From positions 1 through 62,077 of the forward strand of contig DATDYP010000025.1 of assembly GCA_035288985.1 (NCBI GenBank): a stretch of 62,077 nt of DNA. Direction: 5' to 3'. Positions 26,177 through 56,466 of this stretch are shown here, piece after piece. Position numbers and translations under genes: made by a program. The notes beneath the pieces were generated by a model. The model did no database searches. It was not told the origin of the DNA and saw only the letters and a list, made by a program, of their open reading frames with translations. Each line of letters opens with the position of its first letter. Position 1 is the stretch's first letter. The stretch is from Candidatus Nanoarchaeia archaeon (GTDB taxonomy: Archaea; Nanobdellota; Nanobdellia; Woesearchaeales; GW2011-AR9).

Positions 26177-26906
26177 TTTTGTTACGGGAGAACCAAGAAA
26201 AAGACAGCTAATTGCTACACTTGACGATTTTCTAGCTTCTGCACAAGATAATTCTTTAACAGATGAACAAGCAAAGAAAAATTTAGAGGAAGGTGTAATT
26301 GAGCTTCTCGAATATGGGCGACATTCCTCTAACGGCCTTCTGATTACTGATGATGGTTATTTTCTAACTGCCAAGCATTGCCTTGAAAAACCAGTTCCAG
26401 GAGCAGTTAGATCCTATGATGGAAAGATATACAAGTTAGAGAGATGGTCATTATCGCTTCCAAAATATTTTGGAGTGTTTGATGTCGCTATTGGAAAAGC
26501 AGTCATACCAGAAAAACAAAACAGTAAGAAATATCGCATATGTTCGCTTGGCAAATTTATTTCCCCTTTTACTACTATTCCTTTTAAGAGAGATATTGTA
26601 CGTCTTAGTAGATTGAATCAAGAATTAATTTTTCACCATCAGAAAGTGCTGGATGTAATCACATTAAAGGGATATAATCATCTCCCGGTCGCAATTAGGT
26701 ATCAAGGATATGGTGCTACTGATGAACTACAACCTGGTGAATCTGGTGGGATACTTGCAACTACAGATGCAAGAATCTTGGGTATCCATACGAGCAAACA
26801 GAAAAAATTAGATTGCAATGATTATGCTTGTAATTTTGGGATTAGTATAGATGTGGGGTTGTGGCTTATTTCTCACTACAAAGGTATGCTAGAATCACGC
26901 TTATAA
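26157..26906 (+). CDS. Trypsin-like serine protease (S1) with N-terminal extension
   Basis: Catalytic triad motifs LTAKHC, FDVAI, PGESGG. Confidence 0.75.
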   Translation: MLKKLRDFVTGEPRKRQLIATLDDFLASAQDNSLTDEQAKKNLEEGVIELLEYGRHSSNGLLITDDGYFLTAKHCLEKPVPGAVRSYDGKIYKLERWSLSLPKYFGVFDVAIGKAVIPEKQNSKKYRICSLGKFISPFTTIPFKRDIVRLSRLNQELIFHHQKVLDVITLKGYNHLPVAIRYQGYGATDELQPGESGGILATTDARILGIHTSKQKKLDCNDYACNFGISIDVGLWLISHYKGMLESRL

Positions 26907-50074: not shown

Positions 50075-50683
50075 ATGACGGAAGATTCTCAAGAGGCCAT
50101 AGGACTCGGGACTCGCTTCTCTGACGAGTACAGAAAACACTATAGTAAGATCTACTCCCAGCTGATGCGAAAAACCGGAAACAAGACTGTGGCTGAAGAT
50201 TTAACCCAAGAAACATTCAGGAAGGCATTTGAAAGTCTTAACACCTTCAGAGAGGGAGCTAGTTTTGGCACCTGGCTCTATGGCATAGCCCATAATGTTG
50301 CTCTCGATTATTTCCGAGACAGAAGGATGCAATCAGCATTTTATAATGGAGCTATGGAAGGTCTGCGGCAAAAAGACGGTCATCACAGAAGTTCTGATGA
50401 AAAAAGTCAACGCTGGTTCCTGGGCGGGCTGGAGCAGGTTCTTGCCGTTGTCAGCAGCACTCCTGAACAGGATGCAATAACCTGCGAGGAAGTTGCTGAA
50501 GCACGGAAATATATCATGACAGCTCTTTCTGAAAAGCTGCGACATGCATACTCACTGCATCTTCAAGGATATACTGATCGGGAAATTGCAGAACAGCTTG
50601 GAATGAAAGAACAGGCAGTAACGACACGAATCAGCAGGGCACGACAGCAACTTCGCAACTACCACCAGGAGCAGTCAGCATGA
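50075..50683 (+). CDS. ECF-type sigma-70-family protein
   Basis: Region 2 AEDLTQETFRKAF...SFGTWLYGIAHNVALDYFR; region 4 HTH GYTDREIAEQLGMKEQAVTTRISRARQQLR. Confidence 0.85.
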   Translation: MTEDSQEAIGLGTRFSDEYRKHYSKIYSQLMRKTGNKTVAEDLTQETFRKAFESLNTFREGASFGTWLYGIAHNVALDYFRDRRMQSAFYNGAMEGLRQKDGHHRSSDEKSQRWFLGGLEQVLAVVSSTPEQDAITCEEVAEARKYIMTALSEKLRHAYSLHLQGYTDREIAEQLGMKEQAVTTRISRARQQLRNYHQEQSA

Positions 50684-51964: not shown

Positions 51965-52933
51965 TTAAAGATATTGATAATAGACTTCAAAGAATTTTCG
52001 ATACGTTTCTTTTGCTTTTTCTATTCCGAATCTTAGTAAAGGGATATAACGATCTGTGTCTGCTGATTGTAAGGCTTTGATATATTTATTACGATGAGTA
52101 TTCCTGATAATGATAGGATAATATCCTTTTCTGATCAAGATGTGATTTAAGAGCATTCTACCCACTCTTCCATTTCCATCTGCAAAAGGATGAATCTGCT
52201 CAAATTTATGATGAAACCTAAATGCCAATTCTAAAGGATAAACCTTATTTTCCGTTTCCCAGTACCATTTTAAAAGATTCTTAATCTCCCGAGAAACATT
52301 CTCTGGAGCAGTTAATGTAATAGCTCTGCCTAAAATAATATTCGGCAATTTTTTATAGCCAACGCGCTCATCAACGTTTTTCATAAGCTTCTTATGCAGT
52401 TCAATAATAAATTCTTCCGTTATTTCCTTCTTCGAGTCAAATAACTTTGAAAAAATTTCATAAGAATTTTTGGCATCATAAACTTCTCTCAGATCAGCAG
52501 AAGCGACTATTTTATTCTCAAAAACAATTTCAGAAAAGTTCTTTAGAGTGAGGGAATTGCCCTCCAAGGCGTTTGATTCAAACACGAAATTAGCCACGAA
52601 TCTTTTTTTAACGTCTTCCCAATCTTTTTTATTCAATGCTCTTCGAATTTCTTTATATTTTAGGTTCATTTCTTCGATCTTTTTTATTTCTTCAATAGTA
52701 AGGGGGAAGTCCAAAGAATACTTTTTTTTAGCGTCTGCTACTAAAAAGGAAACAATTTTTTTATCTAGTTCTAAGGCAAATTTTTTCTTTTCTTTCTCAA
52801 TTTGTTCTGGAGATATTCCTGATTTTTTCCCCAAGAACTTGCTGATTTTGTGCACTTTCTTTCCGATCCGGATAGATTTATCTAAGTAAAGGTAAACCTC
52901 TCCCTTTGCCTTTCGTTTCTGGATAAAGACCAT
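51965..52933 (-). CDS. Fic-domain protein
   Basis: Catalytic HPFADGNGRVGR and inhibitory-helix-like ESNALEGN. Confidence 0.92.
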   Translation of the reverse strand: MVFIQKRKAKGEVYLYLDKSIRIGKKVHKISKFLGKKSGISPEQIEKEKKKFALELDKKIVSFLVADAKKKYSLDFPLTIEEIKKIEEMNLKYKEIRRALNKKDWEDVKKRFVANFVFESNALEGNSLTLKNFSEIVFENKIVASADLREVYDAKNSYEIFSKLFDSKKEITEEFIIELHKKLMKNVDERVGYKKLPNIILGRAITLTAPENVSREIKNLLKWYWETENKVYPLELAFRFHHKFEQIHPFADGNGRVGRMLLNHILIRKGYYPIIIRNTHRNKYIKALQSADTDRYIPLLRFGIEKAKETYRKFFEVYYQYL

Positions 52934-53002: not shown

Positions 53003-53096
53003 TATACTAAAGGATTGAAATTTTCGAACAAAATTTCCCTCCTTTATATATACAAAGGGCTTAAATTTTCTTCGAAAATTTATGTCCTTTGGTATA
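53003..53096. repeat. Long imperfect hairpin
   Basis: AAATTTTCGAA (53018-53028)/TTCGAAAATTT (53071-53081) plus outer TATAC/GTATA and inner CCTTT/AAAGG. Confidence 0.7.
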
Positions 53097-53171
53097 TTAC
53101 AAAAATGTCATACCTACTACATTAATGCAACACTTTTCTTTTTCCATCTGCAATAAACACCATAATACACC

Positions 53172-53323
53172 GGCTCTGTAGAAAGCCTTAAAAAAGTCGC
53201 CTTGGCCGCTCGGTTCGTGCTTCTAAATAAGTATCTTCTCGCAGGAAGCACCAATAATATCTGCAAGCAGTGGATGCTCTCACTTCGCCTTAAGGCCCAG
53301 GCGGCGACTTTTTCTACAGAGCC
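53172..53323. mobile_element. MITE-like element, 152 bp
   Basis: Perfect 13-bp terminal inverted repeat GGCTCTGTAGAAA/TTTCTACAGAGCC; 9-bp direct repeat TAATACACC (53163-53171, 53324-53332); internal AAAAGTCGCC/GGCGACTTTT stem. Confidence 0.75.
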
Positions 53324-53330
53324 TAATACA

Positions 53331-53350
53331 CCACAATCTTTAAATATAAT
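53331..53350 (+). promoter_or_regulatory. BRE/TATA promoter of the aro leader and operon
   Basis: CCACAATC-TTTAAATA with an ATG 30 nt after the box start. Confidence 0.7.
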
Positions 53351-53368
53351 TCTGCATTTCACATCCAA

Positions 53369-53422
53369 ATGGTCCACAGCAGCAGGAAGAACTGGACTGC
53401 TTTTCTCTACTATTTTTATTAG
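53369..53422 (+). CDS. Aromatic-rich leader peptide MVHSSRKNWTAFLYYFY (candidate attenuator)
   Basis: Six of the last nine sense codons are Trp/Phe/Tyr; directly upstream of DAHP synthase-tyrA-pheA; overlaps a long RNA stem. Confidence 0.75.
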   Translation: MVHSSRKNWTAFLYYFY

Positions 53423-53493
53423 TTTTGGGTTCGTCAGACATTACGGATCCTGAAAAAAGGAAATAGAGAAAAAGCTATACTGAAACAGCGAGG

Positions 53494-54384
53494 ATGAAAA
53501 TGAGACAGGAAGCCAAACTTGCAAAAACCATACCAACAGGAAAGGAATACTGGCTTGTAGCCAGGGAAAGCAGGGACGAGTTCAGAAACAACTTAGACAC
53601 GGTCTCATTCACGATCGGCAATGTAACCGTATCACAGCACAGACCGCTGATCATTGCCGGGCCTTGTGCAGTACATTCACGAGAACAGACTCTTGCCATT
53701 GCCCAACACGTTAAAGAAGCTGGCGCAGACATGCTGCGCGGAGGAGCCTATAAGCCCAGAACATCTCCTTATGCTTTCCAAGGCTTAGAAGAAGAGGGAC
53801 TGAAAATACTTGCGGAAGCACGGGAGCTAACCGGACTACCTATCGTTACAGAAGTTATGGACCCGCGTTTAGTCGAGTTAGTCGGCCAGTACACCGATGT
53901 GCTGCAGATCGGCGCGCGAAACATGCAGAATTTTCCACTCCTGCGGGAAGTAGGAAAATATGCCGCACAACATCAAAAGGGAATATTGCTAAAAACAGGA
54001 TTGATGCCTAAGCTAAAGGAAGTCCTCTGCGCAGCAGAATATCTCGCTCATGAAGGGGCAGAAAAAATCATCATCTGTGAACGAGGCATTTCCCTAACTA
54101 CTGGCGATACGAGAAACACGCCCCACCCCAGTTTTGTACGCGAACTGCGGCAGGCGACCTTCCTTCCTGTCATCGGTGATCCCAGCCATTCTACGGGAGA
54201 TCGGGAATTGGTGGAACATACTTCAGACATGTATCTGGCAGCCAAAGCAAATGGACTGTTAATTGACGTCATCCGCGATGATGAGCCTGATGTCATTAAC
54301 GGGCATCCGGTCTGTGACTATAAACAGGGATTGCCTGCCAGCCGGTTTAAAGCATACCTCAACTCGCTCAGGAAAGAGAAATAA
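53494..54384 (+). CDS. aroF: DAHP synthase, class I-beta, without a full N-terminal ACT domain
   Basis: IIAGPC, RGGAYKPRTSP, QIGARNMQN, CERGI, DPSHSTG; GAGG upstream suggests a start at 53500. Confidence 0.9.
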   Translation: MKMRQEAKLAKTIPTGKEYWLVARESRDEFRNNLDTVSFTIGNVTVSQHRPLIIAGPCAVHSREQTLAIAQHVKEAGADMLRGGAYKPRTSPYAFQGLEEEGLKILAEARELTGLPIVTEVMDPRLVELVGQYTDVLQIGARNMQNFPLLREVGKYAAQHQKGILLKTGLMPKLKEVLCAAEYLAHEGAEKIIICERGISLTTGDTRNTPHPSFVRELRQATFLPVIGDPSHSTGDRELVEHTSDMYLAAKANGLLIDVIRDDEPDVINGHPVCDYKQGLPASRFKAYLNSLRKEK

Positions 54385-54385
54385 A

Positions 54386-55429
54386 ATGAGTCTAGAAAAA
54401 ATCAGAACAGAACTTGATGCGATAGATAAGTCAATCCTGGAATTGCTGGCAAAACGCTTTTCTTTCTGCAAAGACGTCAGCGATTACAAAAAAAAGAACA
54501 AGCTTAAAGTGAAAGATTCTACAAGAGAGGAGGAGATCATCAACGACAGGATCAAAATCTTCTCCGAGCTAGGATATGATGAACCAGAGTTTATTACTGC
54601 ATTATTTACCTTAATTTTAGAAAAGTCACGGGAAAAGATCGCAACCTACTCCTCGGAATCAGAACCAGAACGTAAGGGAAAGAAAAAAACAATCTCCATC
54701 ATCGGAGGAGGGGGAAAGATGGGCTCTTTATTTGCAGAAGAGTTCAGGAAACACGGGCATACTGTGCTTATCTCCAACAAAGAAAAGACCAATTCGGTTG
54801 AACTGGCACAGAAAGGCGATCTTGTTATTGTTACAGTTCCTTTGGAGAAGACAGAAAAAGTTCTAACAGAGATCATCCCGCATCTCCGAAAAGAAGCCTT
54901 GCTGACTGATTTTACATCAATAAAAGAACGACCTTTAGAGATTATGAAAACGGCTGCATCAAATGTGGTGGGAGGACATCCCTTGTTCGGTCCAACGACA
55001 AGCTTTGAAGATAAATGTTTCATCCTCTGTCCTGGGAAAGGTGATTTTAGCTGGTATAAACAATTGCTGCAATCCCTAAACCTTACTGTCATCGAACTCT
55101 CTGCTGAAGAGCACGACAAAACCATGGCCGTGATCCAAAGCTTAACTCATTTCTCCAATCTTGCCTTAGCCTCTACGCTGCAGAAGCTTGGATTTAAAAA
55201 AACGTTTTCCACACCCACCTATGCATTAAAAATGGAATCTATCCAAAAAATGTTCTCCCAGGATGCAGAGCTGTTCGCAGAGATCCAGTTTGCAAATGCA
55301 CATTCGCAAGAAACTATCATCAGCTACCTTGCTGCGGTGCACGAACTGCATCAATGCCTCCTCTCAGGCAACAAAGAGGAGTTTGAACGTCTCTTCGAAA
55401 GCACAAAACAGCATCTACAAAAAAAGTAA
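54386..55429 (+). CDS. tyrA: Chorismate mutase / prephenate dehydrogenase fusion
   Basis: LEKIRTELDAIDKSILELLAKR (chorismate mutase), IIGGGGKMG, DFTSIK, GGHPLFGP, HDKTMAVIQSLTH; start reassigned to 54386. Confidence 0.9.
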   Translation: MSLEKIRTELDAIDKSILELLAKRFSFCKDVSDYKKKNKLKVKDSTREEEIINDRIKIFSELGYDEPEFITALFTLILEKSREKIATYSSESEPERKGKKKTISIIGGGGKMGSLFAEEFRKHGHTVLISNKEKTNSVELAQKGDLVIVTVPLEKTEKVLTEIIPHLRKEALLTDFTSIKERPLEIMKTAASNVVGGHPLFGPTTSFEDKCFILCPGKGDFSWYKQLLQSLNLTVIELSAEEHDKTMAVIQSLTHFSNLALASTLQKLGFKKTFSTPTYALKMESIQKMFSQDAELFAEIQFANAHSQETIISYLAAVHELHQCLLSGNKEEFERLFESTKQHLQKK

Positions 55430-55439
55430 CCAGACCAAG

Positions 55440-56243
55440 ATGATCAAGACCATCGCCATCCTCGGGCCAGAATACAGTTTCTCCCATCTAGCAGGCCTGA
55501 AACTATTTCCGGAAGGGAAATTTTTGTTCTGTAACAGGATAGAAGACATCTTCAAGACCATAACGAGAGCAGATACAACTGCAGATGAAACACTTGGGAT
55601 GGTCCCTTTAGAAAATATGCTGCAGGGAACGGTGCGGGAAACGCTGATGTCCCTGCTAAACTATCAAGTCAAGATCCACAAAAGCTGCAGTGTTCCTATC
55701 CATCATTGCCTGGCTGCTAAAAGTGTGGGATTTACAACTATTGCTTCACATGCACAGGCGCTGGCACAATGCGCGCGCTTTCTGGAAGGAAAGAAAACTG
55801 TCGAACAGGTCAGTACCTCAAAAGCGATGCAGGCAGCAACAGAAGACAATACCCTGGCTGCCATCGGCTCCAGAGAAGCAGCACAATATTACGGACTAAC
55901 AGTGCTGCAGGACAATATCGAAGACAATCATGATAATGTGACACGATTTGTGGTCATTTCTGCTGAACCATGCCCGGATAAGGGTGCAAGAACCAGCCTG
56001 ATGGTGCATCCTAAAGAAGACCGTCCTGGACTATTGTTCACGATCCTAGCGCCCTTTGCGACACAGGGAATTAACTTAACCAAGATCGAGTCCCTGCCTT
56101 CAGGAAAAAAACTTGGTGAGTATATTTTTTATATTGAGATCGCTGGAAATAGTAGTGAGCTAAAAGTGAAATCGGCTATTGATTTTCTCAAAAACAGCGC
56201 GGAAGTCTATTCTTTTGGGTCGTATGATGTGGTGGAGATGTGA
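55440..56243 (+). CDS. pheA: Prephenate dehydratase
   Basis: ILGPEYSFS, VPLENMLQG, SHAQALAQC, NVTRF, C-terminal ACT NLTKIESLP; start reassigned to 55440. Confidence 0.9.
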   Translation: MIKTIAILGPEYSFSHLAGLKLFPEGKFLFCNRIEDIFKTITRADTTADETLGMVPLENMLQGTVRETLMSLLNYQVKIHKSCSVPIHHCLAAKSVGFTTIASHAQALAQCARFLEGKKTVEQVSTSKAMQAATEDNTLAAIGSREAAQYYGLTVLQDNIEDNHDNVTRFVVISAEPCPDKGARTSLMVHPKEDRPGLLFTILAPFATQGINLTKIESLPSGKKLGEYIFYIEIAGNSSELKVKSAIDFLKNSAEVYSFGSYDVVEM

Positions 56244-56275
56244 GCAAAACATTCTTCATAAAAACTCAAAAAACC

Positions 56276-56419
56276 GTACGTATTTAGTTAGTAGGCCAAG
56301 GGTGAATTTTGCTAAGCTTTAGTGACAGGAACAGAAGTGAAAATTATCGATAACAAATCTGTTTACCAACTATTTATCATCAAATTTTCACCAAAATTCA
56401 CGGCCAACTAAATACGTAC
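56276..56419. mobile_element. MITE-like palindromic element, 144 bp
   Basis: Perfect 14-bp inverted repeat GTACGTATTTAGTT/AACTAAATACGTAC; near-direct repeat AAAAAACC/AAAAAGCC; inner GTGAATTTTG/CAAAATTCAC and GTGAAAATT/AATTTTCAC stems. Confidence 0.6.
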
Positions 56420-56466
56420 AAAAAGCCACAATATTTATATTGTCCTGCCCCTTTAGTAGCTCTATA

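Follow-up and report, generated by a model that had tools for sequence, protein, structure and literature searches.

In bacteria, ribosome-mediated attenuation follows from the coupling of transcription and translation, and archaea couple the two processes as well. In the enterobacterial pheL-pheA and trpL-trpE operons, a short open reading frame (ORF) at the operon start carries a run of codons for the end products of the biosynthetic pathway, these sensor codons form part of one strand of an RNA helix, and a hairpin lies near the stop codon. Archaeal RNA polymerase terminates at U-tracts with the factor aCPSF1/FttA and does not rely on terminator hairpins. A leaderless variant of the attenuator has been described from mycobacteria, where a polycysteine small ORF (sORF) forms the first cistron, its sensor codons pair with a downstream purine-rich strand, and the operon that follows is led by a Shine-Dalgarno (SD) sequence (Canestrari et al., 10.1101/834739). 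A full-text literature search for archaeal leader peptides, ribosome-mediated attenuation, upstream ORFs (uORFs) and aCPSF1-linked attenuation returned bacterial cases only, and one tool paper says in general terms that uORFs are active in every domain of life (PMC10219788). Here we describe a short uORF with an aromatic tail that precedes an operon of DAHP synthase (DAHPS), tyrA-like and pheA-like genes on an archaeal contig of 62,077 nucleotides (nt), termed the window (contig C25 of assembly G000; 0.99 Mb, 79% complete), and that we regard as a probable Phe/Tyr-sensing leader peptide, judging from the comparative analysis of its sequence and of its relatives.

Leader ORFs upstream of archaeal DAHPS genes

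The close loci compared here encode proteins 62-84% identical to the DAHPS of the window and were either traced to their contigs or found in genomes of the same family; the relatives are all uncultured, and the statistical tests count related loci as independent. The same design was found at all 12 further close loci with upstream sequence, thus at 13 of 13 counting the window (DAHPS identity 62-100%), and consists of a TATA box, 22-25 nt, an ATG, 17-30 codons ending in a Phe/Tyr(/Trp) run, and a stop codon. The N-terminal parts and the lengths of these uORFs are very different, as seen in the leader peptides MAQTGNKHLNVSASYFYYFYW, MIQAGKTKNSAASYFYFY, MVQTGKARIKYASASYFYFFYW, MVQASIKKENSFASDFFTFFYW, MAHTSSYVNWSASYFSAFYFSW and MKTHASNIVQQSVSASFWFFYFY of close relatives. 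We also searched 401 genomes of the same archaeal order, 87 of which hold the DAHPS gene. With a threshold of at least five aromatic residues among the last eight, an aromatic-tailed upstream ORF precedes 11 of 40 distinct DAHPS loci from other families of the order, compared with 5 of 778 genes of G000 (binomial P = 1.5e-15, a figure that overstates independence, though at these loci DAHPS identity is only 40-62%). None of the other four aromatic-tailed uORFs of G000 is linked to aromatic metabolism or shows the features of the leader. An aromatic-tailed ORF also lies before DAHPS on a contig of a Micrarchaeota metagenome-assembled genome (MAG). An earlier note on this DNA had suggested a check for comparable uORFs in relatives, and their presence at 13 of 13 close and 11 of 40 distant loci leaves its proposal standing.

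Over 25 leaders, the start of the TATA box lies 28-36 nt before the ATG in 22. In the last eight codons of these leaders, aromatic residues make up 70% in frame versus 21% and 24% in the other two frames, T always stands at codon position 1, and the frame stays open across 17-30 codons in spite of the divergence of the 25 leaders, with the stop zero to two codons past the run. The exact C-terminus is aromatic in 17 of the 25 peptides, and in the rest the aromatic residue is at most one or two residues from the end. Such a frame-specific signal argues that the aromatic tail is under selection. Phe accounts for 75, Tyr for 55 and Trp for 11 of the 200 tail residues, a composition that points to a sensor mainly for Phe and Tyr, the products of the operon's tyrA and pheA genes, with Trp as a minor component. 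The earlier note had proposed a sensor for all three aromatic amino acids, of which the Phe and Tyr part holds; the share of Trp is minor, and the lone TGG of the uORF in the window (53393-95) lies outside the sensor run.

Gene callers miss or mis-fuse such leader ORFs. At locus L186 (2501-3595), the public 364-aa gene model P0012 starts at an out-of-frame ATG that overlaps the uORF start and runs through the leader, and the actual layout is the uORF MVQTGIIQSIIQRSAGFFSAFIYYFSC followed by a DAHPS that starts with MLRQEK.

The leader in the window

The TATA box of the uORF begins 30 nt before its ATG (Table 1), which is the modal value for leaderless genes of G000, where TATA starts cluster tightly 29-31 nt ahead of the ATG (119 genes). 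SD sequences are rare among G000 genes with leaderless TATA spacing (10 of 155), and a separate set of 181 genes has an SD. The DAHPS gene has an SD and no TATA box. Taken together, the TATA spacing of the uORF and the signals of the DAHPS gene indicate that the uORF is a leaderless first cistron and DAHPS an internal, SD-led cistron of the same transcript. A T5 tract (53413-17) lies within the last uORF codons, and a T4 tract (53423-26) lies just past the stop.

The host is best read as a DPANN-type archaeon: the G000 assembly (genome G+C 43%) encodes TBP and an archaeal small-subunit (SSU) rRNA, the window contig carries a CDC48 ATPase together with TATA/leaderless promoters, and the closest DAHPS homologues that carry a name are assigned to Woesearchaeota, Nanoarchaeota or Micrarchaeota. 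The earlier note, whose sequence statements and coordinates were all correct on recheck of the window, had placed a leaderless, aromatic-rich leader peptide before DAHPS-tyrA-pheA in an archaeon, and TBP, the archaeal rRNA, CDC48 and the promoters agree with that placement. Contigs with an identical gene occur in ERZ4903137, SRR2090155 and ERZ27254845.

The window element alone is not statistically remarkable, and it is the comparative evidence that lifts it above chance. Equally aromatic short ATG-started ORFs number 61 among 10,508 in G000 (0.6%), and the fold of the window leader by itself (z = -1.35) is no better than that of shuffles and not significant. A more aromatic short ORF at 26540-26587 was rejected because a 249-aa ORF covers it in another frame. 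A search of G000 for leaderless uORFs that end in a run of one amino acid, whichever it may be, gave no convincing case, and no uORF was found upstream of the pheS of this genome.

Table 1. Promoter, leader and operon features and their positions in the window.
Feature	Position	Strand	Evidence
Promoter: BRE (transcription factor B recognition element)-like ACAATC and TATA box TTTAAATA (TATA 53339-53346)	53333..53346	+	TATA start 30 nt before uORF ATG
Putative leaderless leader-peptide ORF, 17 codons, MVHSSRKNWTAFLYYFY, TAG stop 53420-22	53369..53422	+	homologous uORFs in 12/12 other close DAHPS loci
Predicted helix P1 within the uORF: AGCAGCAG (53378-85) with CTG (53392-94) and CTGCT (53397-53401), ending at the start of the sensor run	53378..53401	+	minimum free energy fold; covariation
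Candidate sensor run TTT CTC TAC TAT TTT TAT (F L Y Y F Y), abutting the stop	53402..53419	+	frame-specific aromatic enrichment over 25 leaders
Predicted helix P2: sensor arm GCTTTTCTCTA (53399-53409, on to ~53420) with purine arm AAATAGAGAAAAAGC (53461-75, plus A-run 53452-59)	53399..53475	+	fold and covariation
Predicted helix P3, hairpin: GGGTTCGT (53427-34) / ACGGATCC (53443-50), 8 bp with two G-U pairs, 4 nt past the stop	53427..53450	+	covariation
SD GAGG (53490-93) and DAHPS ATG (53500)	53490..53502	+	SD predicted mostly unpaired (0.71)
DAHP synthase (type I-beta)	53500..54384	+	DAHP_synth_1, PF00793, E = 2e-53; gene model P0001 starts 53500
Chorismate mutase-prephenate dehydrogenase (tyrA-like)	54386..55429	+	CM_2, PDH_N, PDH_C; gene model
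Prephenate dehydratase with ACT domain (pheA-like)	55440..56243	+	PDT and ACT; gene model

Aromatic leader peptides of bacterial DAHPS genes

A metagenome scan with DAHPS gave, among the matches listed, only bacterial relatives of ~50% identity, and these were used as bacterial comparison leaders (L150, L031, L175, L154, L167, L145, L139 and L130). At these bacterial DAHPS loci (~44-54% identity) the aromatic run lies in the middle of the peptide and is followed by 2-12 further codons and then by a G+C hairpin with a U-run, the same type of leader as pheL and trpL. The archaeal leaders are different on each of these points, that is, in the position of the run, the hairpin and the U-run, and they are not mis-binned bacterial DNA. 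They may derive from attenuators that came in with the DAHPS gene and were then re-engineered. As a further observation, many bacterial type I-beta DAHPS genes (in the range L013-L182) from Acidobacteriota, Ignavibacteria, and gut and soil contigs lie behind aromatic leader peptides with canonical terminators made of a hairpin and a U-run.

RNA structure of the leader

Covariation of the three helices P1, P2 and P3 was tested in two alignments of eight leaders each, in which 95.8-97.6% of the cells are paired versus 33-52% in slid controls, five to seven helix pairs show double changes, and none of 500 shuffles matches the observed covariation score. The columns of P1 are 100% paired, with two doubly changed pairs that come from the window, and in P3 all cells are paired while three of the eight pairs are changed on both sides. 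The RNA-level selection suspected in the earlier note is thereby upheld for both of its stems, which covary. Its description of them as alternative stems does not survive, since P2 encloses P3 and the two are nested and able to coexist, and no exclusive pair of terminator and antiterminator was found. In the window, GCTTTTCTCTA can pair with TAGAGAAAAAGC (within 53461-53475) if one A is bulged out, and across the leaders the purine arm changes along with the sensor, giving five variants: UUCUAC:GUAGAA, UUUCUCU:AGAGAAA (window), UCUGCAU:AUGCAGA, UUUCUUCU:AGAAGAAA and UUCUAUUAU:AUAAUUAGAA. The UUUCUCU motif of the window is read in another frame than the same motif in L222, a difference that accounts for the odd Leu in FLYYFY and shows an RNA constraint on top of the coding constraint.

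This RNA constraint also bears on an explanation without any amino-acid sensing, in which the leader acts in mRNA stability or basal attenuation, either as a structured 5′ element or as a U-tract terminator that is constitutive and partial, and in which the aromatic codons simply arise from a U/C-rich strand that has to pair with a purine arm. Here the constraint on the RNA is real and, given the frames of UUUCUCU:AGAGAAA in the window and L222, partly independent of frame; the conserved Ala-Ser codons form the 3′ arm of P1; and U-rich sequence in a genome of this G+C content readily gives Phe and Tyr codons. We nevertheless consider it rather unlikely, because the aromatic enrichment is specific to one frame, T is fixed at codon position 1, the place of the ATG is exactly that of a leaderless start, and the frame is kept open up to a stop next to the run throughout the diverged leaders. 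Moreover, the uORF is tied to DAHPS/tyrA/pheA only, the four other aromatic-tailed uORFs of G000 being without such features, and in bacteria the homologues of this gene have aromatic leader peptides together with classical terminators.

A further helix, P0, pairs the 5′-terminal AUGGYU with RRCCAU just past the purine arm in 8 of 10 close relatives (mean z = -1.3, P = 0.012), and closes a three-way junction in which the start codon of the uORF is buried. The pairing of the 5′ end speaks against a small hydrophobic aromatic peptide that acts independently and only happens to share the operon's transcript. That the ORF is conserved and probably translated would fit such a peptide, as would the activity in trans of some bacterial leader peptides (PMC7298713), but it is composition rather than sequence that is conserved, the peptides range in length from 17 to 30 residues, and RNA pairing in P0 and P1 explains why the N-terminal part is conserved; we rate this as the least probable of the readings considered here.

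Throughout the family, a stable hairpin lies 0-6 nt past the stop, with a median energy of -9.2 kcal/mol compared with -4.5 in 250 random post-stop controls; hairpins at -8 kcal/mol or below occur in 76% of the leaders versus 16% of the controls (P = 1.2e-8). A hairpin at this distance is within reach of a terminating ribosome, and the aromatic run is strictly C-terminal, with F, Y or W as the last residue in most peptides, whereas bacterial leaders continue for several more codons. Both features would suit a TnaC-like sensing of free aromatic amino acids by the nascent peptide, where abundant Phe or Tyr stalls termination, P3 is held open, and the operon is off. However, the sequence of F and Y varies freely, as do run length and the last residue, there is no conserved peptide motif of the TnaC kind, and no downstream alternative structure was found for an opened P3 to feed; we hold this mechanism to be improbable.

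A covariance model of the leader (R1) run against the 401 genomes of the order matched only G000, G418 and, weakly, G277. Rfam gave no match at the gathering score in the window and no relevant match at E <= 10 in 53100-53620. The family is narrow at the level of RNA sequence and broad in its peptide-level design.

Leaders upstream of pheS

A homologous leaderless leader ending in AFFFF stands before pheS, the gene for the alpha subunit of phenylalanyl-tRNA synthetase, in G277 (L228/L229, G277:C2, uORF L228 1470-1532) and in G325 (L230), with the peptides MKHLNQFAVSFGLDSAFFFF and MKQLNQLTFSFGLVGAFFFF. The pheS-linked leader has its own hairpin and the matching purine arm of the UUUCUUCU:AGAAGAAA variant, and the pheS gene behind it has its own TATA box at -30. 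The order-wide search gave no DAHPS match in G277 (G325 was not checked for DAHPS), and in the sister genome G216 the order is leader (MLLETSVKNNELFLARAFYYLFW), DAHPS, pheS. From this arrangement, the AFFFF leader probably outlived the loss of DAHPS and became specific for Phe only. We take the AFFFF leaders before pheS as a hint of specificity for the sensor reading.

From the probable sensor to a proposed output

The sensor is well supported, and from it we infer an output step. In the proposed mechanism, the transcript would start at the A of the ATG at 53369, and the last six codons of the uORF would act as hungry codons that sense Phe and Tyr. A shortage of charged tRNA-Phe or tRNA-Tyr would stall the pioneer ribosome on the tail, where it would cover the U-rich tract and keep P1 and P2 open, and stalling would presumably raise expression of the operon. 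Under good supply the ribosome would reach the stop 4 nt before P3 and leave, and the leader would close into the P1/P2/P3 fold, to which most relatives would add P0, thereby burying the 5′ AUG. In this model, the start codon buried by P0 in the finished leader is an argument for sensing that happens only once, while transcription is under way.

For the output itself, we favour, tentatively and as one possibility among several, that the sensor codons double as an archaeal U-tract termination signal for RNA polymerase and aCPSF1/FttA that is masked by the stalled ribosome. The stalled ribosome would hide the U4 and U5 tracts until the purine arm is transcribed, and P2 would hide them afterwards in read-through transcripts; under good supply the ribosome would be gone, the U-tract would be briefly naked, and the transcript would be cut. 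The only T-tracts of the leader are those in or beside the uORF (53413-17 and 53423-26), and no U-tract lies past the hairpin in this subfamily. Runs of T>=5 are depleted in the ORFs of G000, and a beta-CASP protein of ~630 aa, the size of aCPSF1, was found in 29 of 31 relatives, including all 18 genomes searched from the same family. It has been reported that aCPSF1 binds U4 tracts and that termination efficiency rises with the number of tracts (PMC8716108).

Two other uses of termination were set aside. Classical terminator switching is excluded here, there being no alternative helices and no U-run past the hairpin. Intrinsic termination at the sensor T-tract under control of the same codons was rejected on geometry, because the polymerase passes the tract ~30 nt before the ribosome can read those codons.

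Several points weigh against the proposed mechanism and its output. In the polarity model, a stalled ribosome uncouples RNA polymerase and favours FttA termination, and such uncoupling should give the wrong sign for U-tract masking. P2 would protect the U-tract under good supply too. The pairing of the sensor arm with downstream sequence is no better than in composition-matched shuffles (mean z = -0.42), so that support for P2 comes from covariation and not from energy. Mutually exclusive antiterminator and terminator helices were not found, z values for alternative partners being not significant for either the sensor arm or the 3′ arm of P3, and no intrinsic terminator (G+C hairpin plus U-run) was found between the uORF and DAHPS, where an A-run follows P3. 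P0 is weak or absent in the window itself. The SD is accessible in every modelled state, at a predicted 0.5-0.75 unpaired, with no consistent change among the free, stalled and terminating states in constrained folds of eight leaders. No beta-CASP match was obtained in G000, a 79%-complete assembly. The same incomplete assembly yielded no aroB, aroD/E or aroC (chorismate synthase) despite its DAHPS-tyrA-pheA operon, which leaves the pathway context incomplete; the aromatic pathway may be split over missing contigs or may itself be incomplete. Genes for aroB, aroD/E and chorismate synthase adjoin the leader in the relatives L099 and L185.

The accessibility of the SD bears as well on translational attenuation, of the mycobacterial Cys leaderless sORF or ermC type, in which the position of the uORF ribosome alters folding and with it the access of the 30S subunit to the DAHPS ribosome-binding site, while transcription is unaffected. 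The architecture is the same as in the mycobacterial leaderless sORF attenuators (10.1101/834739). In addition, the best partner of the sensor arm includes the SD in L183, L221 and partly L224, the 3′ arm of P3 (GGAUCCU) is anti-SD-like and has the SD as its best downstream partner in 9 of 13 leaders, and the closed fold ends just 2-25 nt upstream of the SD. On the other hand, the SD lies in an A-rich stretch and stays largely unpaired in all three states in the window and most relatives, the duplex z-scores of the P3 3′ arm are not significant, candidate duplexes of the SD with this arm or with the sensor arm do no better than shuffles, and the burial of the uORF start by P0 in the finished leader disfavours repeated sensing on mature mRNA. 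We therefore rate translational attenuation as unlikely, although less so than the other rivals.

Returning to the termination signal hidden by the stalled ribosome, the fullest form of our proposal is an archaeal-native attenuator in which the sensor codons double as the U-tract signal, P2 locks the read-through state, and P0, in relatives, makes sensing one-shot, a device that would be widespread in aro operons of DPANN archaea and re-engineered from bacterial attenuators acquired with a horizontally transferred DAHPS gene. As a whole it is speculative, and we would place it no higher than its doubtful output step.

Neighbouring elements

The aro operon is bracketed by two repeat elements. 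Upstream lies an insertion that resembles a miniature inverted-repeat transposable element (MITE) at 53172-53323 (152 nt; within 53163-53332), with 13-nt terminal inverted repeats GGCTCTGTAGAAA/TTTCTACAGAGCC that match perfectly, a direct duplication of 9 nt (TAATACACC) flanking it on either side, and a strong fold (z = -4.4). At least 10 more copies at 77-96% identity occur on other contigs of G000. The insertion lies 7 nt upstream of the TATA box, leaving BRE and TATA intact, and is absent at the homologous position in relatives. The second, palindromic element, with the ends GTACGTATTTAGTT...AACTAAATACGTAC, occupies 56268-56436 just past pheA. Between the MITE-like insertion and a Fic gene (51965-52933, minus strand) sits a 94-nt imperfect palindrome (53003-53096) whose two 47-nt arms are 79% complementary and which contains two similar 37-nt units, each a hairpin. 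Further upstream, at 50075-50683, this archaeal contig carries an ECF (extracytoplasmic function)-type sigma-70-like ORF (Sigma70_r2 and r4_2) followed by an O-methyltransferase, an order that L096 also has ahead of its leader, and L097 in part.

Comparison with known systems

The leaders described here form a concrete archaeal family of at least 25 members from many families of one order, together with one from a Micrarchaeota MAG, and their architecture departs from the bacterial one in leaderless initiation, in a C-terminal sensor that abuts the hairpin, and in the lack of a terminator hairpin. With a construct of 130 nt, the translational control of archaeal elongation and termination and the interplay of aCPSF1/FttA with the lead ribosome become addressable questions.

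Like pheL-pheA and trpL-trpE, the biosynthetic operon of the window begins with a short ORF that has a codon run for the end products of that operon, sensor codons within one strand of an RNA helix, and a stop close to a hairpin. Unlike them, its ORF is leaderless, follows a TATA promoter and has no SD, the run stands at the very C-terminus, the helices are nested with no G+C hairpin and U-run, and the host is an archaeon. The AFFFF leaders of G277 and G325 recall pheM-pheST of E. coli in standing upstream of pheS; unlike pheM-pheST, the pheS gene there has a separate TATA box, and the leader is probably left over from the loss of DAHPS. With tnaC-tnaA of E. coli, the favoured output would share a ribosome that is parked at the end of the leader and hides a sequence used by a termination factor. 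It would differ in that the proposed factor is aCPSF1/FttA on U-tracts and not Rho on a rut site, that the stall would come from uncharged tRNA and not from free Trp in the exit tunnel, and that the operon is biosynthetic and not catabolic. The mycobacterial polycysteine sORFs share with the window a leaderless first cistron with a sensor run, an SD-led downstream operon, and the pairing of the sensor codons with a downstream purine-rich strand. In the window, unlike in mycobacteria, this partner strand (53461-75) lies at least 14 nt upstream of an accessible SD (0.71 unpaired), and an archaeon stands in place of a bacterium. That said, the mycobacterial leaderless Cys sORF (10.1101/834739) is the nearest mechanistic relative of the leader in the window.

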